DNA from: Psammoneis japonica
Lineage: Eukaryota
NCBI GenBank assembly: GCA_008632985.1
Contig: QPGO01000026.1
Span: 124,001-188,000 of the forward strand
Length of the DNA stretch: 64,000 nt
Direction: 5' to 3'
The notes under the pieces are model-generated. The model was not told the DNA's origin, searched no databases, and saw nothing but the letters and a program-made list of their open reading frames with translations. The translations under genes were made by a program, and so were the position numbers. Of this stretch, positions 26,206 through 62,821 are shown piece after piece (the first letter of the stretch is position 1; each line of letters opens with the position of its first letter).

Positions 26206-26212
26206 TCTGCTG

Positions 26213-28218: not shown

Positions 28219-28347
28219 TGCTCGCTGCTCACGCACAGCTCACGATCGTCAATCGAGCGCGAGAGGGGAAAAGGGTGCTCTTAAACCGATAACAGCTTAA
28301 TTGAATCGACTTGCTTGAAAGTGCAACGTTCACCTTTGTCAAACACA

Positions 28348-34075: not shown

Positions 34076-34079
34076 GTGA

Positions 34080-39031: not shown

Positions 39032-39190
39032 GTTCACCGTTCGTGTCAATGGGGGCTAAAGCAGAAGCACACTCTTCAACGACAGCGGTCAGTAACATTG
39101 TGACATGATGGCACAATAAACCCTTTCAGTTTTCAGAAAAAAGGCCAAACCACAGCATGCCGTACATAAAATACGTAGAATTCTACGTTT

Positions 39191-39398
39191 TGGGGGAAGT
39201 CTCCAGCCAGCTGCTGGCTGAAAAAAGTCTGCTCGTCAGTGCGTTCGGGGGTTTTGCCAGTACAATTTTTATGTACGAAAAAGACGTCGAGTCTGTCCAG
39301 CGCTCGCCAAAACCCCCTAACGCACAGATTGACAGACTTTTTCGGCACAAATTCTACACAAGATTCTTCAGCCAGCAGCTGGCTGGAGACTTCCCCCA
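39191..39398. mobile_element. 208-bp foldback MITE
   Basis: Perfect IR of about 32 bp TGGGGGAAGTCTCCAGCCAGCTGCTGGCTGAA, inner IRs AAAAAGTCTG and GCGTTCGGGGGTTTTG; GTTT on both flanks (4-bp TSD). Confidence 0.88.
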
Positions 39399-40630: not shown

Positions 40631-40865
40631 AGTCATGACTCAATGTCATTCTGGTCACATCTCATGACTGCAACCCAGACTCAGCTTTTCTCCTCGAATC
40701 ATTTGGCTCAGCTCACAATCTGATTCAAAACCAAACCAATGACTTTCGTCACAATCTTTGGACAACAACTTTCAACCAGTGTCTGTTTGCTCTGCAGCCA
40801 TTCTCATTGCCACCAACCTCCAAGGTCTCATCCATCCTGCTGCGCTGCAGGACTGCATCTTGACT
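40631..40865 (+). repeat. 5' LTR (AGTCA...TGACT)
   Basis: Direct repeat of 47605-47839. Confidence 0.93.
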
Positions 40866-43800: not shown

Positions 43801-46800
43801 GGGGCCCTCACGGTCATCATGGACACTGGTGCAATGCCAGCTGTGACCCCTGACAAAGATGATTTCACGGGACCTGTGACTGTTCCCAAGAAACCCTTAC
43901 AGACAAATGGGATTGCCAACGGTCTTGCCATTCAAGGCACCGGTCCGGTTGTGTGGGTGTTCACAATGCCAAGCAGTGCCACCATCCAACTAAACACCAT
44001 GGTGCACCACGTCCCTGGAGCCCGTCAACGCCCACTTTCGCCTCAACGCCTCTTTGACAAAGAGAAGGGTGTGCGTGGGAAGTGTGAGGGCGATGAACGA
44101 ACTTTCTGTTCACACATTGACGGGACAGGCAAGTTGGTTGTGCCACATCACCAATCAAGCCACTCACCCATTGCGTCAATGACCAAGGGTGCATGGGAAG
44201 CTCCTCAAGTGAATCCACAAATCCTCAACAAGGAGAACCAGAATCTCACGGCAGGTCAGAAGCTTCTTAGCAAAATGCACGCCCATTTTGGTCATTTCAA
44301 CTTTGGCCGCGTCCAAGCACTTCTCCACGCAGCTCCGTTCCTGTCGAATTGTTTCAAGTCCGCAGCAAAGTGTGACCACCCAAGATGTGAAGCGTGCGAA
44401 TGTGCCAAAGGACATGGACGCTCTCTTGGATCTACCCACAAGTCGACAGTCCCTGAATGTGATGGGGCCCTTCGAGCTGACCATCTTCGACTGGGTCAGG
44501 CTGTCAGCGTTGATCATTTTGAGTCACGTCTTTTAGGCCGAACCTTTGACTCATGTGGTGAAGCCACGTCCAAGCAATTCAAGGGCAGCTGCATCTTTGT
44601 CAACCACGCCTCTGGCTGCATCCAGGTCAAGCATCAACTGGGTTTCTCCGCTGTTGAGATGACACAAGCAAAGCAAGTGTGTGAGAAACATGCTTTGGAC
44701 CACGGTGTCATTGTCCAAGAATTTCTTGCCGATGGTGGCGCTTTCAAGGCCAACGCTTTTGCACAACATGTCTGAGAGCATGAACAACATCTCCACTTTT
44801 GTGGAACTGACGCCCATCATCAGAACGGCATTGCAGAGTGGGGCATCCGAAGCATCTCCAACATGGCGAGAGCAGTGTTGCTTCATGTGTCAATCCACTG
44901 GAAGGGTGGGATTGACAGCTCCCTGTGGCCCATGGCTATTTCTCATGCCACGCACATCTGCAATGTCACCCCAAATTCCAAGGGACATTGCCCAGCGGAC
45001 ACATTCACCGGCTCGACAGTGCCTCAACATCGCTTGCGGGACATTCACACATGGGGATGCCCAGCGTGCGTGCTTGATCCGAAACTTGCCTCTGGCAAGA
45101 AACTCCCACGTTGGGAACCACGCACTTGTCGTGCTTTGTTTGTGGGACTCAGTGACATCCATTCCAGTGAGGTTCCTTTGGTCCTCAATCTTCAAACTGG
45201 AAGCGTTGCTCCTCAGTGTCATGTGGTCTTTGACAATCTCTTCACTGCGCACCATCAATCAAGAGGGAGACGGATCCACCTGATCACTGGGAACACTCAT
45301 GTCTCAACCAATCAACATGCATCCCTCTGGAGAAGGACCAGACCGCCCACCTGCACAATGAGTGGCTCACCCCTCCAGAGCGTCAATGCAAAGAGTGAGA
45401 ACTGGCCAGAGAGACACGCATTCAAGGCCATTTTGAGCCCACTCCATCAATTGCTGTGCCGGATCCACCCATTTCTCGCGACAACGTTTCCAATCAAGAC
45501 ATGCCTGCGACTCAACAACCAATGCCACCAGTCCCACCCATGACTCAAATCCCCACAGACTCTGCAGATTTCACGCCAATTCAGCCACCTGAACCTCAAG
45601 ACAGTGACGAACTTCCGCCACCCGAAGCGCCAACGGAACCACCAGCTCCTCCCCCAGTCAAGACACCTCCTGTGACAAATCCAGAGGGAGCATCAGGGCT
45701 GCGATGGTCTTCAAGGTCAACCAAAGGACAGTTCAACTCTGCGAACTTCATTGATGAAGTCCACCTTAGCTCCGTTGAGGAAACACCCATGCCGATCGGA
45801 CACCAAGCTCAGCCAGCTCATCTGGCGACTCTTGAGACGGATTTGGACAGTGGTGCCATCAATGTTGATGATCCCTGAGCCTGCACAGCTAGCAAGAAGA
45901 CCAAGGACCCTGACATGCCTTTGCTGCACAATGCTCTGAAAGGTCCAGACGCCAAAGAATGGATTGAGGCGATGAAAATTGAAGTCAACGCACTCATGCA
46001 TCGTCGAGCCTGGAAAGCAGTCAAGCGTCAGCCGCACATGAATGTACTTCCAGGTGCATGGGCACTTAAACTCAAGAGACTCCCCCATGGAACCCCTCTG
46101 AAGTGCAAGGCCCGACACTGCGTCTGCGGTGATTTGCAGAAAGAGGGAGTGGATCATTTTGAAACCCACGCACCGGTCGTGCAATGGTCCAGCACCCGAC
46201 TCATGCTCACTGCAGCATTGAAGGAAGGATGAACTGCACGTCAGGTGGACTGCACCACAGCCTTCTGCCAAGCTGATGTCGCCGAGGAAGTTCACATGAC
46301 ACCGCCGAAGGGTTTTGCGCCAAGGTCGGGACTCAATGCGGTCCTCAAACTTTTGAAAGGACTGCACAGCCCAAAGCAGTCTCCAAAGGGCTTCTACGAG
46401 AAGTTACGAGCTGGTTTAGTTGAGCGCGGATGGGTGCCTTCAGCTGTAGACCCCTGTTTGCATTTCAAAGAGGGTGTGATGTGTGTGGTGCACGTCGACG
46501 ACACAGCATTTGCTGGAGCTTCAGCTGAAGCTCTAGAAGAAGAAATTCGCAAGTTAGGAGTCTCCGACGACGAGCATTGACACGCATTTGAACTCAAAGA
46601 CGAAGGAGAAGTCGGCAACTTTCTCGGCATCAAGATCAAAAAGCTCTCTGAGGGTTGATTCCTGCTCACTCAACCTGATCTAATTGACAAGGTCCTGCGC
46701 ACCGCACAGATGCAGGATTGCAATGGAGCATCTGCTCCAGCTCTACCTGTGGCTGTTGGTGCCGACACGGATGGCCTGCTGCCTTTTGATGAACCCTGCG

Positions 46801-47604
46801 ATTGTTGCTCAGTTGTTGGAATGTTGATGTGCTTGGCAGCGAACAGCCGGCCAGACATTGCGCATGCTACACATCAAGTGGCTCGATTTTTGTTTGCACC
46901 CCGAGCATCCCACGCTGCTGCAGTGAAGCGGATGCTCCAATGCCTCAAAGCTGCTGCTGCTGAAGGTCTCATTCTCAAGCCTGCGCAAGATCATCGAGTT
47001 GATTGTTGCGTCGATTCTGACTTCGCGGGGTTGTTTGGTGTGGAAGATGGTCAGGACCCAGTTTCTGTCAAGTCCAGGACTGGATGCCTTGTCTGCTGCG
47101 CCGGCTGCCCGCTTGTCTGGGTGTCCAAGCTGCAGACTCTTGTGGCATTGTCGACTGTGGAAGCGAAATGTGTCGCACTTTCTCAAGCCATGCGCGATCT
47201 CATCCCCATTTGTGAAGTTCTCAAGGAGCTCAACCACCAGGCACTCGGAAGTCTGACCACCAAAACCTTGTCACGACTCACACCAAGGCTTTTGAGCTTG
47301 CAAACCAAGGCACCGATGATTCGCCTGTTGAGCAGAATGTCCCACCTGTGTCCATTGTGTGCAAAGATAACTCTGCGTGCCTCAAGTTTGCACGCATGCC
47401 CAAATTGTCTCCGTGAACCAAGCACACTGGTGTTCCGCACCATTGGTTTAGGACCAAAGTCGAACAATTGGAGATCAACATCCAACCTGTCAGCACACTG
47501 GAGCAACTGGCCAATCAATTCATGAAGGGACTACGGACCGATGCATTCTGTGCAGCTGGGCTGGCTCTTGTGGGCTGGCAAGCTCTCTCAGTGTTGAGAG
47601 GGAG

Positions 47605-47839
47605 AGTCATGACTCAACGTCATTCTGGTTGCATCTCACGACTGCAACCCAGACTCAGCTTTTCTTCTCAAATTGTTTGGCTCAGCTCACAATCCAATTC
47701 AAAACCAAACCAACGACTTTCGTCACAATCTTTAGACAACGACTTTCAACCAGCGTCTGTTCACTCTGTTGCCATTCTTGTTGCTGCCAACCTCCGAGGT
47801 CTCATCCATCCCACTGCACTGCAGGACTGCATCTCGACT
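47605..47839 (+). repeat. 3' LTR (AGTCA...CGACT)
   Basis: Direct repeat of 40631-40865, immediately after the PPT. Confidence 0.93.
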
Positions 47840-48450
47840 GCAAAGCGTTGGCTTGACAGATTTTGCAGATTGGTTGAGGGTTGCACATCAATTGCACGCA
47901 CTTTCAGACCATGTGTGTCCAATTTCACACAAAAGGCAGGGCCACAAATGTCCAGCCAAAAGGAAGAGGCATGCGGAATGACCATTGATGTGACAGCTTT
48001 AGCAAGTGCTTTTCTGTTTTCACAGACAGTCTCACATCTCACAAAGTTTGTGCAAGAAGAAAGAAAAGAAAAGCAATTGCAACACAACTTTGCCATGAAA
48101 ATGCTGCCGCACATGACAGCAGCAATGGCTGGCACTCCTGCGTGCATGTCTCTGCCACCGTGACAACAAAGTGGGATTGGCTTCACTGGCAGCACAATGA
48201 GGAAAAGCAACAAAGAGAACAACCCCATGAAAGCCAGCCTCCACCACCACACCAAGTCAGATGCTGCTGCCCAGAACCAACAAAATGGCTCATTTTCCTG
48301 AGAGTGCTCCAGGATTGCCGGCAGCAGATGAAGCAGTTGGGGAAGGTGGAGAAGGAGAAGGAATCATGGCTGCATGTTTTTCTGCATGCAAGCGGTGTGT
48401 TTGTTTGACACATCTCACTGTGGGACGCTGCATTTCTCTGTTTTATTTAG

Positions 48451-48845
48451 TTGCAATTTGCGTGTGCCCATTGAATGCCAAGGAATCCACACTGGAGAGC
48501 GCCACATCAAATGCAGCCAGTCGCACATGGGAAGCTCTTTGCAGTGCAACCGGGTTGCTCAAATTGCCAACAACACAGAGTCTTTGCCAGAACAAGCTGC
48601 TGGCCAAAGCTTTTTCAGCTTTGACAAAACCTTTGGAGAAGAATCTACAACACAGCAGGTTTGTGATGGTGCAGCCAAGCCCATTGTCCAGGGAGCAGTT
48701 TCAGGAATCAATGCAGCCATCTTTGCATGCGGACAAGCCTCTGGTGGTGAGACCCACATGATGCAGGATTCCAGGCCCATTGAAGAAGGCTGCAACTTGA
48801 CTGGTGGAGGAATTGCACATGTGGCCAGCAAGCTGGTTTTCGATT
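48451..48845 (+). pseudogene. Captured N-terminal kinesin motor fragment (kinesin-7/CENP-E-like)
   Basis: VAICVCPLN (cf. VxxRxRPLN), FSFDKTFGEESTTQQVCD, GINAAIFACGQASGGETHMM (cf. P-loop IFAYGQTxSGKTYTM), GGIAH. Confidence 0.85.
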
Positions 48846-48992
48846 TTCAGGTGTTGCAATGCTGATGTTTATTCACCCTTTTTTCTTGACAACATTCATG
48901 CAGTTGCCAATGCGTTTGAGCATTTGGAACAACACTGACACCAACAATTCAAGTTGAGTCATCTGGCTGTAAATCAGAAATGCACAAGTGGC

Positions 48993-50400
48993 ATGATGAG
49001 TGCCATGTTGAATTTTGACAACTCCTTGGAATCAGACTGGCTGCACTGTTGTGAGCAAAAGGAGGAAGCTGGGTTTTCTGAAGAGGATCTTCATTTGTTT
49101 CTTGATTCCATGTGTGAAAGTGTTCTTCTGAATTGACACAGAACTGTCCAAACTGGAGAGTGAATGAGGATTTTGGGAGGCCCGCGTCAAGGTGTGCACA
49201 GAAGAGCTTCCACACAATGGATCCCATTGAAGACATTACGTTGCTGCACATGGGGAAATCAAGTCTGATGATGCTTTTGCTGAAGTCAGAACTGTCCATG
49301 GATTTCAACAAAGTGGCAGCTTTCTTTGCTGCACATTGCACACAAAAAGCACACTGTGCTGTCTTTTGCCAGAAGATTTGCACAATGATGGCAATGAGAC
49401 GAGACTTGACAATTCTGGCTTGATGGACAGAGAAAAACACAAAGCCACATGGAAAATTGTTGGCAAATCTCCTTCATCATTGGTGGTGTGCAAAAACACA
49501 CCTTTTGGGAGAAGTTCCAAGAGCGGTTCAACAAGGTGTGTTAAAACACAAATGTCAGTGACACGACATTGTTGACAGTGTCTCTGGATGACAACAAGAA
49601 GGCTGCTGCCAACAATGGTGCTGACATGCAAGGACCAAACCAAGTCATGCACACTGACAAACAAAAAGGGACAGTCAGCCACCCAGAAGTGTCTCCAGCT
49701 GCACTTCTTGCTCATGGTGTTTGTTGGGAGCAAGAGGAAGATTGAACATGTGAGTGCCACATGAAGCTGGTGAAAACAATTTTTGGAAACAAACTGGTGC
49801 TCAACAGGGTCACATTTTGTTCTGATCATGGACACTGGATTCTTGAGCTCCCAGTTTGCTTGTTGGAGAATGAAGCAGAAAAGCACATGGCACAGTGTGG
49901 CACCAACATTGGCATCAATTTACATGTGATCAAGAGTTGAAAGAGGGTGATCCTTGAACTCTGATCAACAAGGTGGGTCCCAAAACTCCACACACTGGCA
50001 ATGGCAAGGTTGCAGAATGTGACATTTGTGTCAATGCACAACAAAACAGTGCCAACAGTGTGGTGCTGACAATGTCATTGATTGTTCATGGTGCGCATTG
50101 GGATTGTGCAGCACATGAAGAAAACAAGTCTCCAGTCAAATCCTGTTGGTGTGCAGCTCAGAGTGGCATCAAGCTTCAACTTTTCACCCATTTTTTGTTG
50201 ACAGGAACAGTGCTGTTGAGGATGAAGTGCTGTTGGAATTGAGCAAGTTAGCCACAGATCACATTGTTGAGCATCAAGGACATGTTGAGTGGTTCTGTGG
50301 CCAACTTTTGCTGTTCAGACTGCAAGGAGAATTGCAGTGGCGGTCTGCATGTGCAACAGTGTCCACAGATGTTTTGCACTGTCATCCATCCCTGCCACCT
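48993..50400 (+). pseudogene. Second, more decayed copy of the transposase at 30348
   Basis: SLESDWLHCCEQKEEAGFSEEDLHLFLDSM versus SLESDWLHCYEEKTDVAFSKEDLHLFLDSM; colinear through SLDD and SDxGHW; retains sequence missing from the first copy after about 31490. Confidence 0.85.
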
Positions 50401-50639
50401 CCAGCCCAAACCTGACCAGCCCGATCAAAATTGGATCAGGCTGGAGGTGGTGGGGATGGACAACAGCACAAAACATGTGCAGAAACCACCATGCAGACAG
50501 ACTGCCACTGCAACTCTCCTTGCAAGTGGCAATGCCCAGCTTGTTGTTTGTGTGAGCTTGAATTTGCAGCCAAACAACCACAAAGTCATGAACTCCAATT
50601 GCACAAATTTGCACTCACACAGCACCAACATTTGATCAG

Positions 50640-53600
50640 TGTGACAGAGATCCCAATCTAAGTGGGAATGACCTTCTCCACTGACACCCCCCCCCCCCCC
50701 CCCACACTGGGAGAATCAAAAGCCTGGTAAAAACAGGGTTGAAGATCTGCCAGTGCAAAAGAGAAGTGGTGAGAGTCATGACTGCCAGACAGACAGACAG
50801 CAAGGTGGAAACAATGCATCCGTTTCTGCGCCCGACACCATGCAATCGTCCACTCATTAAACCAATCCATTGAATCACCAACAATTGACAGACCGGGAGA
50901 TTGCTCTGAGCATGAGCAGGATGGCAAACTGGGAGGTCTTCCAGGATGACACCAGAGTGCACTGTTGGGAGGCCGTCCAGACCTGGTCCAATCCAAGAGG
51001 AAATCAGGTGGGCAGCCAGAGTGGTGCCAATTTGGCAGCAGCAAGTCACCAGGGATTGGCCAAGGCAACAACTGACAACAACTCCAAGCAGTGCAACCCC
51101 CCCCACAATGGGAGGCTTGCAACATTGGCAAGGTTGGGGTGAGGAGAATCCGAGACAATTGACTTCCCAGAAAAGACAATGGATTCATTTGCCTCTTTCA
51201 CGGTGTGCAGAGGAGCTGTCAGCATGCAGTGCTCAGATGGAAGCTTGTGCCATGCAATGTGTTGACGAGCATCAAGGGAGTGTGTTTTGATTGAACCAAT
51301 TGCCTCGTTCACAATGCACACTGTTGCTGCTCGGTCAGCAGCAACACCAGCTTTCTTGTGCTCAATTGGCTTGCCAAGTTTGTCCAAAGCAATCTTAAAA
51401 ATGGCCAATGGGTCAGTCTTGACATTCACAGAAAAAGAACAAGGGTCAACTGGTGGGGTGGTTGCCGATGGAGTGGCAGCATGGTTGGGGGCAACAACTC
51501 GGCATGAGAAATTCTGGGCCCACGTACGTCCGCAGCAAAACAAGGTGGTGGCAGCCTTCTTGGGAGCAGCAGAGGCATTGGAGGCTGGAACATGGTTGAG
51601 TTCCAGGTCAATGGTGGTGGTTGCAGCAGATGGAGTTGTCACTGTTGGACGCAACTCAATGACAGGGCGAGTTGCATCGCGTGCAGCAGCAAACTCGGTG
51701 GATGGAGCAGAGATGGCGCTGAGGGTCCATGTGGGGTGTCGGTTGCAGTTGCAATTGGCAAATTGCCATCTTGAGCCGGTGCCTGGGACAGAGCGGCCCA
51801 CATTGACAACGATTTTTCTCGCCAGAACAATGCCGTCCTCAAACGGGTGCCATTCGCAGCGGCCATTGTAATGTTCTGTTGCACTCAAAGAAATCAACGG
51901 TGCATGGGGCAGTTGACATTGGATCTTTGATGGTGCACCTCACATGGGATCGCTGCGCAAGTAGAGTGCACACCACGCCACACGCAAAACGTTGGCTGAT
52001 GATGCTGACAAAAGCAATGAGATGAACAACAATGAACACGCCATTTGTGTCGACAGAGCAAAGGTGTTTACATTGAAAATGCTCACCGCCGGTGTCAACA
52101 ACAACGTGCTGAAGGTGTTTTGTTGTTTCGCGGTGTGGCATGGCCCCCCCTTGCACCAAGCAAAAGCAAGGCTCACAACCTGACAGAGATCCCAATCTAA
52201 GTAGGAATGACCCTCTCCACCAACACAGTGTGCACTCACATTTGTTCTTCATTGTTGTGACCCAAAATCTTCATCATTGGAGAATGTGACAAATTACATC
52301 ATGCGTTCGACATTTTCTTTTGTTTGCAAAGTGCTCTGCATCAAAAAGAAGCTGCGCTCTCAGCACGGTGCACACAGATCCCAAACCCACCAGTGTCAAA
52401 CAAGAGGGCTGATGCCAAGAAAGGAAGAAACTGCTCCAGCTCCAGTGCTTCGCACACTTTGGCAGCAGTGCCCAGGATGCAATCCAGTCTTCACAAAATG
52501 GAGCCTGATCACAGCAGACACGCAGCTTGGTCCAACCTTGTCAATTCATCCAACCCAAATGTCTTTGTCATTGGCTCTTTTGATTTTTAGAGGCCCCCCC
52601 AAACACCCCTGCTGACTGGAAGCAAAGCTGAGAAACAACTCCCAAGAAAATCTGGTCCAAGCTGGCCTCTGTCTTGGTGCACACCAAGCTCAACCTTCCT
52701 CCTCTGTCATTTGCCAGCCCTGGTCAAAACACAAACACCAGCAAGCAATGATGCACATGGCAGCCCCACCCAGACAAAGAGAAAGCTGCACAACTCACCT
52801 TGTGGCACCATCTGGCATCATGCTCATTTTGCACAAGCTGCAGCACTCATTTTGGCTCCTGAAGAAGCTGTGCTCATCTCAGCACAAGTTGTGGTGTGCA
52901 TTTTGGCACATGAGCTGCACTCATTTTCTGTGCAAGTTGTGGTGCTCATTCAAAGTGAGTCAAATGTGGACAAAAAAAATGCAAAACAAACAGAGCCAAA
53001 AACAAGAAACACAACCACCAGATGCCAGCACAGGTCATGGTGCTCATTCAGTGCCTGAGTTGCACTTGTTCAGCACAAACTGTGATGCTCATTGCAGCAC
53101 CTGAGTTGTGCTCAATGTGACACACAAAATGCACTCAATTGATGTCTGCATTGTGCTTGTTTCAGCACATGTTGCAGTGCTTGGTTGGCACCTGAGTTGC
53201 ACTCATTTGGCAAAAGTTGTTGTGAACATCTAAAGAAAGAACCAACAACTGAAATGATGGAATGCACAACAGAGATGCACAACACACAATGACATTGGGT
53301 TGATCTCTCAATGACTGCAAAACTTGAAACCAAATGGTGTGCCCCACACTTTTCCAAAAAAATCCATGAAGACATGCTGTCAAGAAACAACAAAAACAAA
53401 ACACAAAGAAGAAAAGAGAGCAATGTGCCACAAATGCCATCTGTTGACCCTGCACAAGAACAGACTGTGTGCAGATGACAGTCAAATGATTTTTAGATGG
53501 TTGAGTTGATCTCTCTGAGATCTTCTTCTCACTCTTTCTTGCCAGCACACAGTTGCCAGTTTGCAGGGAGCTCTTGAGCTTGTTGCTCATGCCATCAGTG

Positions 53601-56600
53601 CTCTGACAGGTTGTGGCCTTGTTGAGCAATTGTCTCTCTGGCCTGCTCAAAACCAGTGCACACGTCATCAACCACACTGCATTTGACCTCCAAGAAGCCT
53701 GTTTGTGACATGATTGAAAAGATCTCTGTTGTTTTCATGCAACACACTCAAAACACCATGAAGTTTCCAAACACATCAACAGCCTTTGTGGTGGTGTCAC
53801 CACAGATCATTGCTCTGGATCAATTTTTTGATGGTTTCAAGCATGTGAAGGCCAAGGAAGACATCACTGATCTGCTTCAGGGGTGCATCCTTCAAGAGCT
53901 TTTGTCCTCCCAGAAACCCCTGACCCTGCTGACACCACCCCGTTGTGTCACTCTTCAGAAAACATTGCTCAAGAAGGTTGCCAGTCCTGCATCATTCTCT
54001 GACCAAGCACCTCATTTTTCCTGACAGATGACAGACCACAAAATTCTTGAAGAAGCTCTTCAGGCTTGTCACACCATTTGGTTGTCACTGTCAACATCTC
54101 ATGTCTCTGCTTTGCCCCAGACATGCAACACATGTTCAGGAACTGGAGCAAGTCTTCTGATGCCACATGCTCTCCAGTTTGTGCTCCCAAAACTCCAGCA
54201 GCATTGTCTGCTGCTTCAGGCCCTCTTGACATCTCTGATTTGATGGATGCACTGAAGAAAAACTGTGCTGCATCAAAGACACCCTCGTCTGGAGTTTCTG
54301 GCAGCTCTAAGACCCCTGCCACATCTTTGTCATCAACATTTCCATTCAATCTGGATGCTCCAACCAAGGATGTGCATGCATGTTTTGACCACAAGGCTGC
54401 AGAAAAGGTGATTCTTGCACGGTGCTCCAGTGGATCCATGCATCATCTGAATGGCACTGACCACCTTGTCCCACCTGATGGTTCCCTGTTTGTCATGGGC
54501 ATGACTCCCAATCACAAGGCTCTGTTCTGGGAACCAAGTGTGTGTCATGATGACTCTTGTCATGCTGGTGATTGTGAATGCTGTGGGCAACCGTTGTGGT
54601 GTTGTTTTTAACAAAACCATGGCAAAAACAAACATTTTGCCATCCAAAATGGCCCTGATGATGACCTCTCACAACAAATGCACACCCATTGTCTTGGAGC
54701 CTTGCACACTCTACACAAGCTCCTTTTGCACTCCAACATTTTCCCCAAGAACAGCAGGCTGCACTGTGTTGTTGCCTCTTGCTGCATGGCAGTGGTTGCA
54801 AAATGTTGAAGCAGAAGCAGGGGTTCAGTGGAGTCACACCCCAAACAAGGAAACCCACCCATCAAGAACCACTTTGCACTCTTCAAGGATTTTTTTACAG
54901 CCAGCTGTGCACATTCATTTTTGACACTGACTCATCTTTGGACAGGTGGCCTTGAGATTGCTGTCTTTGTCAACAAGAGTGCCAAGCACTCAAAGCACCT
55001 GGCAAGAGTGCCAAGCATGAGCTCATCTTGTCAGCTCACTTGTGCAAGTGCACCAAGAAACAGATTGTTGAGACGCTCTGCATGTGTTTGAGCCAGGCAG
55101 ACAGTCTGGCACACAGAGGTGCCTCTTCCAACTGAATTTGGTGGAACCCCCACCACCAGCATGAGCATTGTGATGATCCTTTGTCTTGCACTTCTCTTGG
55201 CATCAGTGCTGTGGATGTTGCCAATTTGCCAACTGTTGATGGCCTTCCCCTGAGTGGGATTTTCAATGAGATGTGCTTGCACATGATGACATGGTTGTTC
55301 CGTGAGATGACACCTTTGATGGCCTTTGCAACAAGTTGCACTCTCTGGGCATTTCAACGACAGACAATGATTGCCTTTTGCGTCATGCTTGCTCAGCACT
55401 GGTGTTCAAACTCAAGGTTGATCCCAAACAAGGCCACCAAGCATCTGCACCCAATGCACACTGGCAAACAACTTTTTGAAGATTGTCCTGTCCTTAAGAA
55501 CAGCCCCTGTGTCAAGGTTTTTCCCACTTGCTTCTGCCAGTTTTTGAAGCAAGAAGCTGTTCAACATGCACAGCTGTCTTTGCTGGCACTCAAGGAAACT
55601 TGAGACATCTGGACAGAATGGAGAACAAGTTCTTCTGTCTGCCAATTTTCTGCCATTGGATTTTTAGTTGGGTGTCATTGCAGCAAGCTTTGGATCTATG
55701 ATGCAGCCCATTTTCTCCCCTCCAAGCCCGTGCAGATGATGGCAAGGCAGCTGTGAAAGAGGGGCTTGCTGTTCTGTTGCCTTTCACTTCAAAACCACTT
55801 TCTTCAGATGTCACGAGTCTCCCCGATGACAATCCATTGGCACGCAATGCAGATCAGGGAGGGATCAAGATCAGGGGAGGGCACAGAAGACACCATTGAG
55901 CAATGGCTGGCACTTTTTCACCTTGAACACTCTGATGCTTTTGACAAAGCTGGTTTTCAGCTGTCAGCTCCATTCAAATCTCTGCCATTGAACCATCTTG
56001 AGCATCTTTGCCTGCTGTGGTTAAAAAGGAACATGCAGCTTTTGAGGTGAATGCAGTGCTGGCAACATGAATCTGCTCCATTGATGCCAAGCTTTTGCAC
56101 CATCCAACCCATGTCCCCTCAAGGTTCACCCAGCCCTTGGCAAAGGTGTCATTCCCCACAGATGTGGACACTTGTGTGTTCCAGCAGAGATGAAGGAAGG
56201 TCATGTTGGCATCTGCACTTGCCATTGTCCACAGCTTCAGTCTGCTCTCATTGACAAATGTGCAGTCCACACCTGCAGTGGTGGTCGCAAGAAAGATTTT
56301 GTGGTTGATTGCCTGCCAAAATTCCATGACTGTGGCACCTGCATGTTGCAAAACACAGTCTCTGCTCCAGTTAAGACATCATCATCCATGGCCAGTTGAT
56401 TGGTGGGAAGTGTTTTGCCTGCCCCTTGGTGCTCCCAGAGCTGGATGAGGTGCTCAAAAAATCCATGCATGACCTCAAGGATGACAACCCCAATTTTGCT
56501 GAAGAGCACAATGCAGCCATTGTGCCCATGATTGACACCTGCAAGAAGAGCCAAAACAAGGTGCTCAAGGATGAAATGAAGTTGATTCCACACTGCTGCA

Positions 56601-57250
56601 AAGACATGTCATTTGAATTTCACCTCAAGGAAAAGGCTCCTGTGTGGGCTCTTAAAGCACAGATGCTGAGTGCCCTCTGTGACACCAACTTCTTGCCCAC
56701 CCCAGCCAGTGACCACTGCCAGCATGATGCTCACAGGCACATTGGCGACATCCCCAAGCTTGCTCTCATGGTGCTTCTCCAATGGACACTTGCCCCACAT
56801 GCGTTCACATGAAGCAGGCCAAAAACCTGGCCGGCCCCAACTCTGCTTGAATCACTGCCCAACCAGCAGGTCCAGGCTCAACTGTGGATTTTACTTTCTC
56901 TGGTTTGAAGTCCAAAATTGAGGACCATGTGGTGGACTGTGCAGGTCCCAAATGGTGAGACTTGTTGGGTTGCTGTCAGCAGCGATCATCACACCTGACA
57001 TCTCCTTGGCCCTGCACAATTGCCAAACTGTGTCCTGAAAAAGCGTCAGAGTGCACGGTGTCATAATGTCTGCGTGCATGATGAAATTACATTGCTGTGT
57101 TATAAAATTTGCTTGTCTGCACATGACGGTTTTTGTCATTTGGTTGATTGTCAATCTCATGCTGTTCTTCATGTTCAAACACAGATGCTTTTTAATTTTT
57201 ATGCTCTGCCTTTTTCACAACAACTGATGATCTTTAACGACAAGCCAAAC
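50640..57250. other. Heavily decayed TE-like coding remnants lacking both TpA and CpG, unclassified
   Basis: Near absence of TA and CG; chains of broken + strand ORFs at 53.6-56.8 kb with no motif I can assign. Confidence 0.5.
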
Positions 57251-57320: not shown

Positions 57321-59390
57321 TCAACCAGCCTGGTCATCCGCATCGTCCTCCTCATTCCACATGTCTTGTCCGCTCTCTTGCAAGAATTTCAAACATGCCG
57401 CTGCCGCGTTGGATGTTTCCTTGTCACCGTTCCAAAAAAGCCACACTGCATGTCTTGCATTTGGGTGAACATCATCGAGAGGAAGAGGTCCCTCGAAATG
57501 CTGAATCGCATCACTGCTCCCCTCTTGACGCATTGTCGTCGGCTTCTTTCTCTCTTTCTTCATTTTGCCTGTCCCATTTTTCTCTTCCTTCCTCGTCTTG
57601 GCGCTGCCTGTTTTCACCGTCTCTGGCGTCTTTCCATCCGAATCCTTCTTTTTCATCGATCTCGTCTCCGTCGCCTTCATCTCTTGTTGTTGTTGTTGTT
57701 GTTGTTTTTTCTGTTGGGTGTCACTTTGTTTTGGATCCATGTTTCTGACTTCTCTCTTTGCTATCTCCATTTCCAAATGTTTCTTTGTGATTGTTCGCAT
57801 GCGTCAGTTGAAGGCACCCACGTGCTTTTCACGCACCTTAACGCGCATGTAGAAATCCATGTTGTTTTCCAGCACATACACCCTTTCTTGATGCTGTTCC
57901 GCACAACATTTTCTTCCATCAATTCTACACTCCGCATTGCCCTTTCCCGGCATAATCTCACGCAGGATTTCCCTGGGAGAAGTTGCACACGCGTCTGGCA
58001 GGTTTTTGTGTTTAAAACTCCAAATCGCACCAGGCGCGCATGTAACTTCTCCCACACACCACTCTGGTGTGTTTCCACAGAAACCAGATTTTTTGGTGTT
58101 GGAACAGCAACCATGGCGCCGCGTGACCTGTCGGTCGCCTCTCTGTCGTCGTGCCACAGCCGTGCAAGTCACTTTCAGTTACACCATGGCTTCCATTGTC
58201 CAAAACGACACGTTGCGGGCACGCTGGCCTGATGACTGCTGGAGGAAACTGGCCGAGGTGGAGAGCAAAGGAAAAGAATCAAAAGAGGAAAAGATTTTGG
58301 CGGACTGCCGCGCAGCTAAAAAAGAGCTGGGTCACTGGTTGGGCACCGGGAGGAAGGAACCATCCAAGAACCCCTGCTTGCGAAGAGACTGCATGGACAT
58401 GTGTCATTTAATCTGCTCTTGCAGCAAAGTCACACGTGGTGACTTGGGCGTAGAGACCGCAGATGTGAAGAAATTTGGGAGATTCATTTGACGATCATGG
58501 AAAGAGATGAACAGACCATCAAGGAGAAATGGAAGGAACTGTCGGAAACCAAATACAAAATCATGAGCCGGGTCCATGAGAACATGCATGAATGGAGCAG
58601 GGAAGTGAGGGAATGCATGCACGCTGCACAGGCCATGTTCTCCATTCACGACAAGGACGAGCGTTCAAGTTGGATCATCAAGCGAGCGAGGAATGCTCAC
58701 AAAACACGCCAGCATTGGAACTTGCTGGCAATGCACCTGGAGAGGCAGGGAGAACAGTGTGCGGCAAACGGTTGGTCAAACAAACCAAGCAATGAGCTGA
58801 TTGATGAGTTTGCAGCTGGATCAAGGGAGGGCGAGTTTTGTCTGGCGATTGACAAGCAAGATGTTGATTCATTGAGCAGGGATTCAACCATCAGCTTGCC
58901 CACATGTGGGATGGACAACAGCGGGAATTGCGGGCCACTCGCATTGGACAATGGTTCAGGAGATGTGTGCAAACTGGTTGTGGACCGAAAGGGCGTCGTG
59001 TTTGATGCAAGGAAGCTGGCGAATTTGTTCGAGCGACAAGCGGAGTGAGACGCACCTTGCAGGTTGTGGTGGTGTGACGAATTGGAGTTCTTTGAATTAA
59101 CACCGAGGAAGGTTAACGGTTGGATCTTGGAAATAATCGAGAAAAGGAGGGACTTGGGTCGGGGGTCCTTTCCTTTTCATTGGGACGATGAAAAGGACAG
59201 GAAACTGCGGAGACAACATCTAAAAACAATGCAGGAAATGACTCGTCGTAATTACGTTGAGCGTTTTGTCGGGTGTGTCAGTGAGGCAACCTGCGCGTTT
59301 GATCGCATGACTGATTGCTCATGTGAGGGGAGGTACAGCAATTTTGTCATTGTCCCTTTAGAGGAGGATGCAATGGAAGAATTGGATTAG
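57321..59390. other. Two divergent hypermutated ORF remnants (minus 58114-57321, plus 58187-59390), probably TE accessory genes
   Basis: Protein-like charged composition, in-frame TGA interruptions, TpA depletion; adjacent to the Plavaka transposase. Confidence 0.4.
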
Positions 59391-59599: not shown

Positions 59600-62500
59600 T
59601 CGGGCCTTTTCTTGTGCTTCTGCCACTCCTGGACATTCTTCATAAACCAAAACATTGTCCCCAATTGCTTCGACAGGGACAACACGTAACTTGGGTGAGC
59701 ACAGAGTCTTCTCAGGCGTTGAAAGCCAGTTGTTTCATTTGTGATCAAGCTGCCAGCGACTGGCCAAGTCTGTGTGCTGACACCGTTGCCTCACAGTTCT
59801 CTGGTCAGCTTGACAAGCAGTTGGATGGACCACTGCCCAAATCGATCCTGTGGCTTCCTGTTTGAAGAAACACAGCAAACGGGAGGGAAGCTGTTGATCG
59901 CCGTTTCGTGTGCCGAAGGTCACACAGGCAAAGTCACACCATGGTCCTTCGCTTTTGTGGTCGGGGTGCGCACGGCATGCATCCCTCCCGTTTGCATTGT
60001 AAAACTCTGTCTTGCAAGTCAGGTGTGTGTTTTCACCATCTTCACCAACACAATCCTCCCACTTTTCCGACATGAAGTTTGGCAACACAGGATGAACTTG
60101 GCAACAAGCATGCAAGCTGTTCCACTCAAACGTCACAGCGCCGATCCCTCGGTTGTAGGTGAGAGTGAACGCACTTCCTCCCACCGTGTGATTGTCTGTC
60201 CTGACTCTTGATGATTCCTTTTTCCCAGTTGGCAAAATCCAACTGTCAGCTGAAATTGCGGCGTTGAGCCTCATTTGGTCCTCCATGCGCGACACCACTT
60301 GCTTGAGAAAACTGTCGAGGTTGCGTTGTTGTGCGGCAGATGACGGCAGCTTGAAAAAGTCTTTCAAGAGACATTCCCCCAACCCTGCGTCAAAGTTCAT
60401 CGCATGTCGGTGACAATGAAGAAACGCCATGAGATGGAGTGTTTCATGAAGCTTTTGAAGCTTCCACCCGCATCCTTCTGTTTGCGGGACGAGTTGCACC
60501 ATCCGGTCAATGAGGAGACGGATTTTCTTGTTCATTTTCTGAACAGATGAACTGGGAGCAACGCTTGTGATGGGTGGATCGCCCAGCCTGCACCATGCGT
60601 GGAAGACAAGAAGGTCCTCGAGCAATTGAATGAATTGCCGGACTCTGCAGTCAAGTCTTTTTCCCTTGTGTTTTTTCTTTTTTTGGTTGTCGTCACCATC
60701 CTCAGCCTCACTCTCCTCTTTCTCATCCTCATTTTTGTCCCAGCCACCCTCTTCGGAATCCTCCGACCTTTCATCGTCAGAGTCCAAGTGCTCACTGGGT
60801 TGGCAGTGACTCTCAAAGTTAACTTTGGGTGTCTTGTGATTCTCTGGAACAATGGGTTCGTCTGCGTCCTCGTCAAGGAAGCATGACTCACATGCGTTTC
60901 GTCCCTCGCTTGTCAACAGGAGAAGGCAGAAAACAAAAGCCATTCCAGCCCAGTGGTGAGAGTTGAGGAAGGTGAGCAACGTTGCTCCTCCTTTGAAGTT
61001 TGTTTGCAAAAAGGATTCTTTGCAAGTTGACCGGTGATTGCTGAAAATCCTTTCCACTGTGCTGTCCACCTCACTTGCGACCACAGGTGTCATGCTGTCT
61101 ACAAATGAATTGATCACCCTTTTCAAGGTGCCATTTTCAAAGAGATGCATCATGTTGCTGGCTGTCGCAAGGGCAACGCCGCATGGTTGTGCGCCAAAGT
61201 CTGCCTCAAAAAGACAGTTGGCAGGCACGTTGTGTTGCTTGGGGCAATGCAAGATGCCCAACCAGTGCTTCCTTTCTTTGTCTGATCTGTCATCGTCGTT
61301 GGCCTCAGTTTGCACTTGGTGGAGATCCAGTCCTCGGACAAACTCGCATTCAATCCATGGGTCGTCCAGTTTGTTGAAGCCAGTGAGGCAAAAACGACAG
61401 CAACGTTGACCACAGTTGTGACCTCCGCATCTCGTCCAACGAGACAGTCGCCGCTTTTTGCATCTCCTGTGATCAGAACGATCAGTGGGATTGCGTGCAG
61501 GTGTGCATCTCATCCCCTCATCACACGCATGTTTTCATGCCTCCTTTTCTCATGACTTCCAAAAGTGGCTCCAAAATGACATGCAAGCAAGTGTGGCAGT
61601 CTCTTGACGAGCATCCCTTCTCTGCCTTGCGATTGTTTGAGAGATTCTTTGCCGCAGATGACGACATCTTTTCCAAATCCGGGAGATGACCAAGTGGTTT
61701 CCAGACACTCTTGTCCGACCATTTGTTGAAGGCAACATGCGCAGAGGTCATGATCACTGGTTCTCCGCAATGTGATCCCATCCCTTGTGTCCTGCCAGTC
61801 TTGTCGAGGTAAATGACATTGCACTCGAGAAATTGTTTCTCCGGGTCAGTCATCCGTTCTTCGCAACTGTGCCTGCACCACTCACCCGCCAAAAGGCACT
61901 TGTCATCTGGTCCTTCACTTTGTACTTCCCAAAAGGATTGTCTGGATCGGCCACATTCTCTCGGCTGCACCACAGGTGAGGATCGAGCAAAAACTGTTCC
62001 CAAACCTTTGTGAAATCCCATCTTGGCACTGACACTCGTTTTGGCAAACCGGTTTTGCAATTTTTGGTTTCTAGAGTGACAGGAATAGACTCGCTGGGTG
62101 GAAGAGGGAAATGATTAGTTAAGGCACGCATCAACTCTTTTCTCCTTGGCAGAACTGTGCCAAGCTCAATGTTGCTGTTGCCAGTGTGCCTCTCAATGAA
62201 ATCAACAATGCAATCGCACAATTCCAGGGGAGCACCACGTGTGTCCATGATCTTCTTGCACAACTCTACGCAAGCTCCGTTGAGATTTGTCAAAGAGGGA
62301 GTAGAAGCCAAGGCCTCTTCTGCAGGAGCGTCGTGCCTTGTCCCCAAACGTTGATCCTCATCGTGAATGTCCTCTTCCTCCTCCATTGTCACGTCCAACA
62401 CTGCAGCAAAGGATTGACCGCCGCCAACATCCAAATCATTCATTGCCAAAAGTTCAACTCCATGCATGCTGTGGTTTGATGAAATGGAGGACATGTCGTC

Positions 62501-62821
62501 CATTCCGCATGGCGCGTCATCCTGGGAGGGGAACAAGGGGCTGCTGCTCGGATCACTTGTTGAAGATCTTGGGAATCGGCTGCAAGTGGATCGCCTCGGA
62601 TGGGATTCGTCATCATCAGAGGACAAAGAGGAAGAACTGCCGCTTTCTTTGGGTGCCCCCTCTATTGTGGCAGGAATGTCGCTTTGATCTGGGACCAGAT
62701 CTTGGGTTTGCAACTCTTGGGCAACTGAGCAACACGTCGGTGAGCATCTCCAATGGCAGGCTGTTCGCAAAAAACTTTGGCCACAACCGGGACAGAGAAG
62801 AGGGTTTCCGCCCATTGTCAA
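59600..62821 (-). mobile_element. Plavaka-type (CMC-related) transposase pseudogene
   Basis: FLLDPHL...DNPFGKY, GEWC, VIYLDKT, EPVIMT, WKPLGHLPDL, RDCHTCL, NMMHLFENG, GWKLQKLHETLH, NFDAGLGE, HPDHKSEGPWCDF; frameshifts and a deletion. Confidence 0.8.

Follow-up and report, generated by a model that had tools for sequence, protein, structure and literature searches.

What removes TpA from parts of this Psammoneis japonica contig, and why do a few TpA escape? The question is posed by positions 52600–57000, flagged in an initial annotation that proposed that surviving TpA are mostly YTAR and that such a flanking-base preference could be a fingerprint of a mutator. We addressed it by counts over the window, i.e. 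the whole stretch of 64,000 nucleotides that was analysed; all window counts below refer to this one 64-kb window.

The flagged stretch and its surviving TpA

Exact counting gave 13 TpA in 52600–57000, the same 13 lying within 53100–56900. Their tetramers were TTAA (5), CTAA (2), TTAG (2), TTAC (2), CTAC (1) and CTAT (1), that is, nine YTAR, four YTAY and none preceded by a purine. The initial annotation, which had found by eye about 13 TA in 53.1–56.9 kb, about nine YTAR, the rest YTAY and none after a purine, was thus accurate. TpA O/E was 0.03–0.07 and TG/CA O/E about 2. Relative to the stretch's own TG/CA steps, TA stood at 13/547 after a pyrimidine versus 0/500 after a purine (Fisher p 2.6e-4), and at 9/262 in Y_R steps versus 4/785 in other contexts (p 9e-4). 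Measured against the NTAN mix of TA-normal window DNA, the occurrence of all 13 TA after a pyrimidine had p 1.5e-5, and that of at least 9 of 13 as YTAR had p 1.9e-5. The stretch is also almost without CpG (CG O/E 0.04–0.14), a feature absent from the initial annotation.

Homology at the 3' end identifies a putative copia-type polyprotein remnant, with a frameshift near 56.8 kb. Five library matches were found (E 7e-6 to 1.8e-4), four of them carrying PF13976 gag_pre-integrase, and pairwise alignments to P0147 gave E of 6e-12 and 2e-13. Where P0147 has Tyr, the remnant has F, C or H. Pfam searches of six read-through frames of 52600–57000 gave zero matches, and among the domains not found in this way were reverse transcriptase and the integrase core. 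Window self-comparisons revealed no flanking repeat that could represent LTRs, and self-alignment of the window in the purine/pyrimidine alphabet revealed no further copy of the stretch. At about 57.1 kb its homology enters a different high-copy repeat. In run X1 the stretch is single-copy at ≥80% likeness, with word depth of 64–120 versus about 60–70 for unique DNA. Judged by homology, the stretch would be a Ty1/copia remnant rather than a complete element, the transposon call being supported for the 3' end only.

TpA loss across the window and between repeat copies

The TpA deficit is not peculiar to the flagged stretch. Six depleted blocks, totaling 44.0 kb, had TA O/E of 0.09–0.19 and TG/CA O/E of 1.4–2.0 (Table 1); at finer scale the ranges across these 44.0 kb were 0.03–0.2 and 1.4–2.2. 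AA/TT O/E was unchanged in this DNA, and TC/GA steps were not depleted. Several blocks had lost TpA and mostly kept CpG, for example 30001–31000 (TA O/E 0.07, CG O/E 0.85) and 4001–5000 (0.10 and 0.81). Within the depleted blocks lie repeats, copia-like elements and a transposase resembling Plavaka; the copine and lipase blocks are normal. Also depleted are a kinesin fragment, tandem arrays and a DNA-transposase-like ORF. No domain could be recognised in most of the depleted DNA: Pfam returned nothing beyond the kinesin fragment for 37 ORFs of 48–57.3 kb, and a weak Plavaka match was the sole one for 54 more ORFs in depleted DNA. Annotation tools miss such elements because Tyr turns into His or Cys, stops vanish, and long false frames appear in all six frames.

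Table 1. Coordinates of repeats, transposon parts, genes and composition blocks in the window
Feature	Position	Strand	Basis or remark
TpA- and CpG-exhausted DNA, 13 TA all after pyrimidine	52600–57000		counts, O/E, Fisher tests
Putative copia-type polyprotein remnant (Gag-pre-integrase to integrase N-terminus)	56375–56950	+	library matches, pairwise alignment
5' LTR of high-copy copia-like retrotransposon	40628–40866	+	repeat alignment to 47602–47840; 0 TA
gag-pol frame of copia-like element; one frame, two stops, Tyr-poor	41713–45543	+	SH3_retrovirus, homologues
3' LTR of same copia-like element, purine tract before it	47602–47840	+	repeat alignment
Short-repeat copy, TA-depleted	22351–22568	+	aligned to 29454–29682
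TA-normal partner of 22.4-kb copy, in host-type DNA	29454–29682	+	alignment
1.1-kb repeat copy, TA-depleted, CpG kept	30378–31491	+	repeat alignment
Partner of 1.1-kb repeat, TA- and CpG-depleted	49023–50060	+	repeat alignment
Direct repeat, CpG-rich, retains three TTAG and GTAC	5913–6195	+	partner 10031–10312
Partner of 5.9-kb direct repeat	10031–10312	+	repeat alignment
42-bp tandem array, single TA site variable between units	7949–9338	+	unit alignment
Largest TA-depleted block, nested transposon DNA	39901–64000		TA O/E, TG/CA O/E
Other TA-depleted blocks	1901–3000, 3601–6500, 7401–11200, 20901–27500, 29801–35300		TA O/E, TG/CA O/E
TA-normal host block	11201–20900		TA O/E 0.50–0.61, CG O/E ~1
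Copine gene, TA-normal block	12570–14849	-	
Class-3 lipase gene, TA-normal block	15522–17729	+	
Other TA-normal blocks	1–1900, 28701–29800, 35901–39900		TA O/E 0.50–0.61, CG O/E ~1

The LTRs of the high-copy copia-like element at 40.7–48 kb, whose family numbers roughly 40–50 copies, place the loss in time. They are 88% identical in the full alphabet and 99.6% identical in the purine/pyrimidine alphabet. Their 28 mismatches comprise seven TG↔CA swaps, one TA/TG site, nine CpG-type differences, three other transitions and one transversion; the two LTRs now hold 0 and 1 TA, and 3 and 8 CG. That they differ mainly by TG↔CA swaps indicates that TA sites mutated independently in each, after integration and at the DNA level. 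Fifteen of 16 visible TA lineages had changed, versus 4/239 differences at other positions, and CpG lineages had changed in 9/20. From these numbers we infer, rather than measure, a TA rate roughly a hundred-fold or more above background. The gag-pol frame between the LTRs has a word depth of about 2500–5500 in X1 and 22 homologues with gag_pre-integrase, Pol_BBD and RVT_2, and its Tyr content is 0.5% versus 1.5–3.9%. Selection for Tyr codons as the source of the YTAY excess on the sense strand was unsupported, Tyr codons making up just 5 of the 25 TA in this frame.

Eleven repeat pairs together yielded 64 TG↔CA swaps, 38 sites with TA in one copy and TG or CA in the other, and only 11 shared TA. 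The 1.1-kb repeat pair shows 27 TG↔CA swaps. The 22.4-kb copy keeps TTAG three times and CTAA once. It has lost 13 TA present in its partner: four TTAT, three GTAG, two CTAC, and one each of ATAA, GTAT, TTAC and CTAT. Alignment thereby confirmed what the initial annotation had read from this copy, namely retention of TTAG and CTAA alone and the same lost tetramers. Identity of the 5.9-kb direct repeat pair was 92.5%, or 98.6% in the purine/pyrimidine alphabet. Among 23 matched units of the 42-bp array, the variable site reads GTAC in nine, GTGC in nine, GCAC in four and ATGC in one.

Flank dependence of TpA survival

Survival of TpA depends on its flanks. TA in depleted DNA divides into YTAR/mixed/RTAY as 125/156/33 (n=314), versus 98/353/185 (n=636) in host DNA (chi-square p 1.9e-19 to 2.7e-19). 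As a further baseline we took related, unmutated copia loci: an alignment-based scan of metagenome contigs gave 80 loci (336 kb), none of which was TA-depleted (TA O/E 0.40–0.89); a single-protein scan of metagenome contigs had found no relative. Their division was 3331/8679/5159 (n=17169; p 1.9e-23), and odds ratios against it ran from 0.005 (ATAT) to 0.29 (TTAA, CTAA/TTAG). Copy pairs gave a third comparison, in which TA survived at 18/38 YTAR, 19/89 mixed and 2/38 RTAY sites (p 6.7e-5). With the flagged stretch excluded, depleted DNA still had odds ratios of 1.97 for Y_R (p 5.7e-8) and 0.37 for R_Y (p 2.8e-9). Y_R exceeded R_Y in eight of nine segments; segment 7401–11200 opposes the trend because GTAC persists in its tandem array.

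The initial annotation had taken uniform NTAN survival, after correction for ancestral composition, as the outcome that would count against a flanking-base preference. Survival was non-uniform under all three corrections (host DNA, copia loci, copy pairs), so the preference holds. Its YTAR rule stands as an approximation; the absence of a purine before TA does not extend beyond the flagged stretch, since 99 of the 314 TA in depleted DNA follow a purine.

A model of ten strand-symmetric tetramers fitted survival far better than one of R/Y classes (LRT p 5e-10). ATAT, ATAC and GTAT are nearly erased, while TTAA, TTAG and CTAA survive best. A directly 5' of T (equivalently T directly 3' of A) makes a site hot; T at -1 and -2 makes it cold. 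The footprint in depleted DNA covers positions -1 (p 2.4e-9), -2 (p 2.0e-12) and -3 (p 6.8e-3), with no effect at -4 (p 0.9); host DNA showed an effect at -1 (p 4.5e-4) and none at -2 to -4. Fitted P(TA) spans 0.2% to 18%. TA/(TA+TG+CA) was 0.026–0.061 for xTAG versus 0.002–0.026 for xTAT. Survivors may in part be TA re-created from TG or CA; survival is then better worded as an equilibrium, with flank dependence unaffected. Strand asymmetry was also noted (p 0.0014 for 16 tetramer classes against 10).

Mechanism, alternatives and related systems

The process acts specifically on the TpA dinucleotide, on DNA after integration, within repeat blocks and at a rate that depends on the flanks. The reading that we consider probable is A:T→G:C hypermutation specific to TpA in integrated transposon and repeat DNA, the 13 TpA of the flagged stretch being its slow-reacting residue. 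TA would become TG or CA by a change on either strand, with nearby host genes spared and a rate set by about three bases per side. The fastest sites would be those with A before T or T after A (ATAT, ATAC/GTAT), with other mixed contexts intermediate; the slowest would be TA with T-rich sequence on its 5' side and A-rich sequence on its 3' side (T-Y-TA-R-A; TTAA, TTAG/CTAA). Such protected contexts alone would persist in old, saturated DNA like the copia-like remnant in 52600–57000, from which a second, slower process, CpG decay as in methylated DNA, may have removed the CpGs too. The agent could be an enzyme that is drawn to silenced chromatin and flips out or exposes the base, which would presumably be easier where purines and pyrimidines alternate than at a TA flanked by a T-tract and an A-tract. 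As to the chemistry, our best guess is that adenine is deaminated within DNA, the route proposed for Bigelowiella natans.

Direction in the repeat pairs was 18:10 in favor of TAY→TGY. A hand tally at Tyr positions gave about four His to four Cys (three His and one Cys from the gag-pol homologue comparison, the rest read by eye from pairwise alignments of 56375–56950 to P0147). Trinucleotide mass balance against host DNA assigned 64% to RTA→RCA and 78% to YTA→YTG; these strand figures were set aside because the balance fails to close once tetramers are considered. No CDA-fold deaminase gene (HxE...PCxxC) was found among the ORFs scanned in the 64-kb window.

If the modified base were instead thymine, TET/JBP-type oxidation at TpA to 5-hydroxymethyluracil (5hmU) or a derivative would mark silenced transposons, and mispairing or repair would turn T into C; the hot context would in that case be R-T-A, A-T-A above all. 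TA is palindromic, so T→C on one strand is A→G on the other, and the TG:CA tallies above do not consistently favor one direction. There is precedent in dinoflagellates: according to PMC11572971, T gives way to 5hmU mainly at TA and TC, and the modified base both marks transposons and silences them. Here TC/GA is not depleted, and no sign of such a base or enzyme appeared in the present analysis. 5hmU opposite A is also only weakly mutagenic, and we regard thymine oxidation as improbable. Still less probable is Pol eta-like error-prone repair in methylated DNA, in which deaminated 5-methylcytosine leaves T:G, and long-patch repair mutates nearby A:T. It would explain why CpG decay and TA loss share blocks. 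The Pol eta hotspot is WA, transversions included; here AA/TT O/E is unchanged and TA sites change by transitions only. TA loss is moreover near-complete where CpG is largely kept (30001–31000; 4001–5000), and in the LTR pair TA lineages changed more often than CpG lineages.

ADAR-like A-to-I editing of transposon transcripts, fixed via reverse transcription, fits the retrotransposon nature of several affected elements and the A→G change with 5' U, an ADAR-type neighbour preference (5'UAG in the consulted Table 1 of PMC10661471). Against it, the two LTRs of a single element came to differ at TA after integration, tandem arrays, the kinesin fragment and the DNA-transposase-like ORF are depleted too, and the relatively good survival of xTAG, with TAT worst, is the opposite of a 3' G preference. 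ADARs are not known outside animals, and such editing is very unlikely to be the cause. We give just as little credence to the absence of any mutator, i.e. to selection or codon usage that keeps TA rare, or to a YTAR pattern arising from small numbers or composition. A mild TpA deficit does occur everywhere (0.5–0.6 in host blocks and the range given above in copia loci), and YTAR, which has stop triplets on both strands, is scarcer in coding DNA. But O/E of 0.03–0.1 is far under that of all 80 related loci, the inter-copy TG↔CA swaps reveal mutation in place, the flank effect persists against both baselines, in pairs and outside the flagged stretch, and Tyr codons hold few of the TA in the copia frame. 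That modified bases misled sequencing or assembly, for which nothing specific speaks, is the least probable of all. Logan contigs, assembled independently from run X1, share 0.98 of sampled words with the stretch, and a 3611-base contig piece over 53522–57132 differs at one letter; X1 is possibly the source data, so this agreement is read support rather than independent confirmation. The comparison with TadA and Pol eta spectra suggested in the initial annotation yields a partial answer: the fingerprint speaks against a Pol eta-like (and an ADAR-like) process and leaves a TadA/ADAT-like deaminase neither favored nor disfavored.

Our search of the literature on diatoms, the TpA/TA dinucleotide, hypermutation and retrotransposons found, within these terms, no report of TpA hypermutation in diatoms; the terms hypermutation, dinucleotide and deamination do not occur in PMC2806351 and 10.1101/2025.10.24.684338 as searched. 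Both the occurrence in a diatom and the flank fingerprint appear new, and TpA-only hypermutation itself appears known once, from a 2026 preprint on a chlorarachniophyte.

Known systems share parts of this pattern. Fungal RIP is likewise a repeat-confined, dinucleotide-specific burst of transitions; it disables transposon genes and remains visible as a scar in base composition. By contrast, RIP changes C:G→T:A at CpA and so creates TpA, whereas here TpA is nearly gone and CpA/TpG doubled. RIP also hits both duplicates; here the 22.4-kb copy was mutated and its 29.5-kb partner in host DNA was not, although a 220-bp repeat may be too short for this comparison. Methylated transposons also undergo CpG decay, which is seen in the TA-depleted blocks too (CG O/E as low as 0.04) and adds to their TG/CA excess, but TpA loss is separate and faster here, several blocks having lost TA and kept most CpG. 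ADAR hyper-editing and APOBEC3 produce neighbour-dependent, deaminase-type transition clusters in repeats and are viewed as defence; APOBEC3, however, alters C, not A. ADAR acts on dsRNA and, in the consulted table of PMC10661471, prefers 5'UAG; here TAG survives well and changes are post-integration. Dinoflagellate 5hmU likewise favors TpA (and TpC) in the transposon DNA of a different lineage of SAR, but it is an epigenetic mark, and TA→CA decay is not reported in the available part of PMC11572971.

TadA/ADAT2 deaminases target an A preceded by U/T (U33-A34), and the restriction of the changes to TA fits a T directly 5' of the target A, as it also fits other models. Position 32 of tRNA is usually a pyrimidine, whereas here a pyrimidine two bases before A's partner T protects. 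The TadA/ADAT2 context listed in Table 1 of PMC10661471, as consulted, is 5'ACG; here TAT is hotter than TAC.

The closest likeness is to B. natans, for which the available text of Mettrop et al. (bioRxiv 10.64898/2026.01.13.699255) describes de novo TpA→TpG/CpA changes in a subset of mutation-accumulation lines, at a rate far above background, and names TadA/ADAT2 as the candidate family. There as here, changes are almost solely A:T→G:C at TpA giving TpG or CpA, TpA-poor blocks rich in CpA and TpG are clustered, and host genes are spared; reverse-transcriptase and DDE-transposase genes are enriched among its TpA-poor genes. The terms flank, context and trinucleotide do not occur in the main text as available. 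Unlike this diatom (Stramenopiles), with its LTR retrotransposons and repeats, B. natans is a chlorarachniophyte (Rhizaria) whose proven targets are giant-virus and virophage inserts. It is possible, though we hold it doubtful, that a dedicated TpA-directed DNA mutator acts against mobile DNA in Rhizaria as well as Stramenopiles, which would make it old in SAR, with a footprint of about eight bp, hot at A-TA-T/alternating purine-pyrimidine and cold at T-Y-TA-R-A. On that reading the fingerprint could serve to pick out the enzyme by biochemistry, and the TA contexts retained could date or classify transposon insertions. The flank signature is quantitative, with odds that range about 60-fold, and can be compared with the 231 Bigelowiella de novo mutations and with candidate deaminases and thymine-modifying enzymes in vitro. 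Depletion is deeper here (O/E 0.03–0.1) than in the B. natans viral insert (Rho 0.45, in the preprint text available), and the same scar, far deeper, in diatom transposons suggests a defence that extends beyond one alga.

Two kinds of DNA and their contents

Two sharply separate kinds of DNA, TA-normal and TA-depleted, make up the window (table). The TA-normal blocks carry a class-3 lipase gene and a copine gene, the latter an intronless frame whose best matches are diatom proteins at 44–53% identity (including those of Thalassiosira rotula, Synedropsis, Seminavis, Nitzschia and Cyclotella); no near-identical protein was among the matches listed. These matches place the window in the nuclear DNA of a diatom. 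AA and TT are unaltered in the depleted blocks, which hold tandem arrays and a copia-like element; gag_pre-integrase, Pol_BBD, RVT_2 and SH3_retrovirus domains occur among the element's 22 homologues, 17 of which were aligned. A kinesin motor-domain fragment, possibly a duplicate or taken up by a transposon, sits in DNA with TA O/E 0.07 and CG O/E 0.23; hypermutation has thus also reached part of an ordinary cellular gene family. A weak match to a Plavaka-type (KDZ-type) transposase, inside long minus-strand frames, marks a possible DNA transposon amid hypermutated DNA. The Uma2 family (putative restriction endonucleases), known mostly from cyanobacteria, is represented in a frame bordering host-type DNA.

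Pfam searches gave no match for most of the remaining depleted DNA, as expected if Tyr codons became His or Cys codons and other TA-containing codons were altered. Throughout depleted DNA, 52600–57000 included, change of TA to TG or CA erases TAA and TAG and cannot make a new in-frame stop. The result is long false open frames in all six frames, with almost no Tyr and an excess of His and Cys; in hypermutated blocks ORF length is no evidence for a gene.

Features of the window, with positions in the window
Feature	Position	Strand	Remarks
TA-normal blocks	1-1900, 11201-20900, 28701-29800, 35901-39900		total 16.7 kb; TA O/E 0.50-0.61, CG O/E about 1
TA-depleted blocks	1901-3000, 3601-6500, 7401-11200, 20901-27500, 29801-35300, 39901-64000		total 44.0 kb; TA O/E 0.09-0.19, TG/CA O/E 1.4-2.0
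280-bp CpG-rich direct repeats	5913-6195, 10031-10312		flank the 886-residue frame; keep three TTTAG and one GTAC
886-residue open frame	6978-9638	+	mostly 42-bp (14-residue) tandem repeat; possible repeat-protein gene or non-autonomous element
42-bp tandem array	7949-9338		within the 886-residue frame
Copine gene	12570-14849	-	759 residues
220-bp repeat copies	22351-22568, 29454-29682		first mutated; second, in host-type DNA, unmutated
Uma2 (PF05685) frame	28285-29487	+	400 residues; E 2.9e-9; the 22.4-kb repeat has its unmutated partner at the 3' end of this frame
1.1-kb repeat copies	30378-31491, 49023-50060		both TA-depleted; CG per kb 45 and 6
Copia-like LTR retrotransposon	40628-47840		239-bp LTRs and gag-pol frame; depleted DNA
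Copia frame	41713-45543	+	in the copia-like element
Kinesin motor-domain fragment	48332-48862	+	Pfam E 1e-13; depleted DNA
Palindrome	50320-50525		206 bp, near-perfect (94%) in the purine/pyrimidine alphabet, just 71% in the full alphabet
Copia-type remnant frame	55136-56809	+	matches P0147 at 56375-56809 (E 6e-12)
Next remnant frame	56794-56950	+	matches P0147 (E 2e-13)
Very high-copy repeat	57343-58009		AT skew -0.31
Long minus-strand frames	59738-62821	-	
Plavaka-type transposase, weak match	61524-62114	-	E 2.9e-4

Self-comparison of the window found no second copy of 52600–57000, and its depth in sequencing run X1 was 64–120, against about 60–70 for unique DNA, making it roughly single-copy. 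Logan contigs from X1 reproduce it (one 3611-base piece differs at 1 letter), so the sequence has read support, though X1 may itself be the source data. Translated in all six frames with X in place of stops, the stretch gave no Pfam match. By exhaustive profile search the frame at its 3' end matched five proteins (E 7e-6 to 1.8e-4), four of them with a GAG-pre-integrase domain; Tyr positions of library protein P0147 correspond to F, C, H and C in the window. These matches identify the 3' end as a plus-strand copia-type polyprotein remnant. The remnant ends at about 57.1 kb, truncated by a different, very high-copy repeat. The repeat that breaks into it has a word depth of about 14,700 in X1, as against about 60–70 for unique DNA.

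Flanking bases of surviving TpA

Between 53.1 and 56.9 kb the initial annotation had counted by eye about 13 TA, about nine of them YTAR, the rest YTAY and none after a purine. Exact recounting over 52600–57000 gave the same figures: 13 TpA (TTAA 5, CTAA 2, TTAG 2, TTAC 2, CTAC 1, CTAT 1), nine YTAR and four YTAY. Per-kb O/E was 0.03–0.07 for TA, 0.04–0.14 for CG and 1.7–2.2 for TG and CA. When TG and CA steps in the stretch served as the set of possible sites, TA accounted for 13/547 steps after a pyrimidine versus 0/500 after a purine (Fisher p 2.6e-4), and 9/262 in Y_R contexts versus 4/785 elsewhere (p 9e-4), a pattern beyond chance even in these 4.4 kb alone.

The preference, which might have reflected ancestral composition, held after correction with host DNA and related copia DNA as baselines and in repeat pairs, each significant; after correction, NTAN survival in depleted DNA is non-uniform and the rule stands. 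Depleted DNA (314 TA) has YTAR 125, YTAY 90, RTAR 66 and RTAY 33, and normal DNA (636 TA) 98, 172, 181 and 185 (chi2 89.6, p 2.7e-19). An alignment-based scan of metagenome contigs supplied 80 related copia loci (335,893 bases; 17,169 TA), with YTAR, mixed (YTAY and RTAR) and RTAY at 3331, 8679 and 5159, compared with 125, 156 and 33 in depleted DNA (chi2 104.7, p 1.9e-23). TA O/E in these loci is 0.40–0.89, so none is hypermutated; many are CpG-poor (CG O/E down to 0.10). CpG decay is common in such copia elements; the TpA process is host-specific. For the pair-based estimate we used ten repeat pairs, leaving out the 34.38/34.57 pair so that no unit was counted twice, taking just the depleted member of the 22.4/29.5 pair, and removing sites whose flank class differs between copies. 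Inferred ancestral TA lineages survived in 18/38 YTAR, 19/89 mixed and 2/38 RTAY cases (chi2 p 6.7e-5; YTAR vs RTAY, Fisher p 4.6e-5).

The same preference recurs in depleted DNA outside 52600–57000 (Y_R OR 1.97, p 5.7e-8; R_Y OR 0.37, p 2.8e-9), where A before or T after TA has an OR of 0.31 (p 7e-18). Y_R exceeds R_Y in 8/9 depleted segments, the exception being 7401–11200, where GTAC persists in a tandem array. The absence of a preceding purine does not generalize: 99/314 TA in depleted DNA follow one.

Flank dependence is thus real, and its purine/pyrimidine wording is a first approximation: a model with ten strand-symmetric tetramers is far superior to one with three R/Y classes (LRT p 5e-10). 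Odds ratios for TA versus TG+CA, depleted DNA against the copia loci, were 0.005 for ATAT, 0.013 for ATAC/GTAT, 0.069 for ATAA/TTAT, 0.075 for GTAC, 0.079 for ATAG/CTAT, 0.12 for CTAC/GTAG, 0.13 for GTAA/TTAC, 0.15 for CTAG, and 0.29 for both CTAA/TTAG and TTAA. Uncorrected TA/(TA+TG+CA) was 0.002 for ATAT, 0.005 for ATAC/GTAT, 0.020–0.026 for other ATA/TAT contexts and 0.038–0.061 for all the rest; the largest single effect is therefore A just before T, equivalently T just after A.

With the tandem-array block excluded, surviving TA showed a 1.8-fold enrichment for T at -2, the second base before the T (by symmetry of the strands, also A at the second base after the A; p 2.0e-12); there was an effect at -3 (p 6.8e-3) and none at -4 (p 0.9), and the identical test in host DNA gave no effect at -2 to -4. 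The 13 survivors in 52600–57000 fit this extended footprint: T stands at -2 in eight of them and A in none. In a strand-symmetric logistic fit (reference base G), odds multipliers for A, C and T were 0.65, 1.67 and 1.80 at -1; 1.01, 1.34 and 2.35 at -2; and 1.79, 1.24 and 1.55 at -3, with a predicted TA share from 0.2% (GGA-TA-TCC) to 18% (TTT-TA-AAA). Some survivors may be TA re-made from TG or CA; the fingerprint stands even so, since equilibrium TA abundance would still be inversely related to context-specific loss rate.

Mutation of integrated DNA

Identity between the LTRs of the copia-like element is 88% when all four bases are distinguished and 99.6% when only purine and pyrimidine are. 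Their 28 mismatched positions comprise seven TG<->CA double swaps, one TA vs TG, nine CpG vs TG/CA, three other transitions and one transversion. A swap marks an ancestral TA that turned into CA in one copy and TG in the other. Because an element integrates with identical LTRs, the differences arose in place; RNA editing followed by reverse transcription is excluded as their origin. At present the two LTRs have 0 and 1 TA, and 3 and 8 CG. Of 16 visible TA lineages 15 changed, while non-TA, non-CpG positions differ at 4/239, from which the TA rate would be some hundred-fold or more over background and TA change quicker than CpG decay. With at least 8 TA per 239 bp at insertion, the source copy was not TA-poor.

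Eleven repeat pairs together show 64 TG<->CA swaps, 22 TA/TG, 16 TA/CA, 11 shared TA and 63 CpG-type differences, along with 149 other transitions and 244 transversions that come mostly from old pairs. The single TA site of the 42-bp array reads GTAC 9, GTGC 9, GCAC 4 and ATGC 1 in 23 matched units. CpG was lost in only the 49-kb copy of the TA-poor 1.1-kb repeat, and TA loss and CpG loss are thus separable. The short 220-bp copies hint, weakly, that the target is a chromatin domain and not sequence duplication as in RIP. The palindrome looks like an inverted repeat blurred by TA-type transitions.

Candidate chemistry and relation to Bigelowiella natans

Mutation here is strictly TpA-specific, consists of transitions only, acts on integrated DNA, and is confined to repeat blocks beside untouched genes, with a flank footprint reaching about three bases on each side. 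We infer that an enzyme is brought to silenced DNA and has to flip the base out, a step for which alternating purine-pyrimidine sequence would be more permissive than a site flanked by a T-tract and an A-tract. Adenine deamination is the likeliest chemistry, though we propose it tentatively. Among known spectra suggested for comparison, that of Pol eta does not match: its motif is WA, and AA is untouched in depleted DNA. The fingerprint also speaks against ADAR-like editing, as ADAR prefers 5'UAG (PMC10661471, Table 1) and here TAG contexts survive and TAT fares worst. The main alternative to deamination is thymine modification, for which dinoflagellate 5hmU, described as preferring TA and TC and silencing transposons (PMC11572971), offers a precedent.

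TA being self-complementary, A->G on one strand is indistinguishable from T->C on the other. Where one copy of a pair kept TA, YTAY->YTGY plus RTAR->RCAR outnumbered the opposite outcomes 18 to 10 in a tally by hand (not significant). Tyr positions of homologues read about 4 His and 4 Cys in the window (3 His and 1 Cys from seven conserved Tyr columns, the rest by eye from P0147 alignments). Modest strand asymmetry was seen (p 0.0014), with higher survival of YTAY than of RTAR on the sense strand of the two plus-strand copia elements; retention of Tyr codons does not account for the YTAY excess, as just 5/25 TA in the copia frame lie in such codons. Mass balance against host DNA was set aside as strand evidence because it does not close at the tetramer level. 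In the copia frame all five remaining Tyr codons are TAC preceded by C (CTAC), and Phe stands at 2/7 conserved Tyr columns, a replacement requiring a transversion.

No report of TpA hypermutation in diatoms was found, for the terms used, in the literature library searched. In B. natans, a preprint (10.64898/2026.01.13.699255) describes 231 de novo mutations; every one is at TpA, and a single one is not A:T->G:C. They fall in an integrated giant virus and a virophage, where the rate is some 1000-fold that of the background. Reverse transcriptase and DDE transposase are over-represented among TpA-poor genes there, and the authors propose an ADAT2-like DNA adenine deaminase. The main text of the preprint makes no mention of flank, context, trinucleotide, tetranucleotide or neighbour. 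The scar is of the same kind, but the diatom belongs to a different supergroup branch and its scar is much deeper. The diatom case belongs with this very recently described kind of TpA hypermutation, to which the flank fingerprint is a new element.
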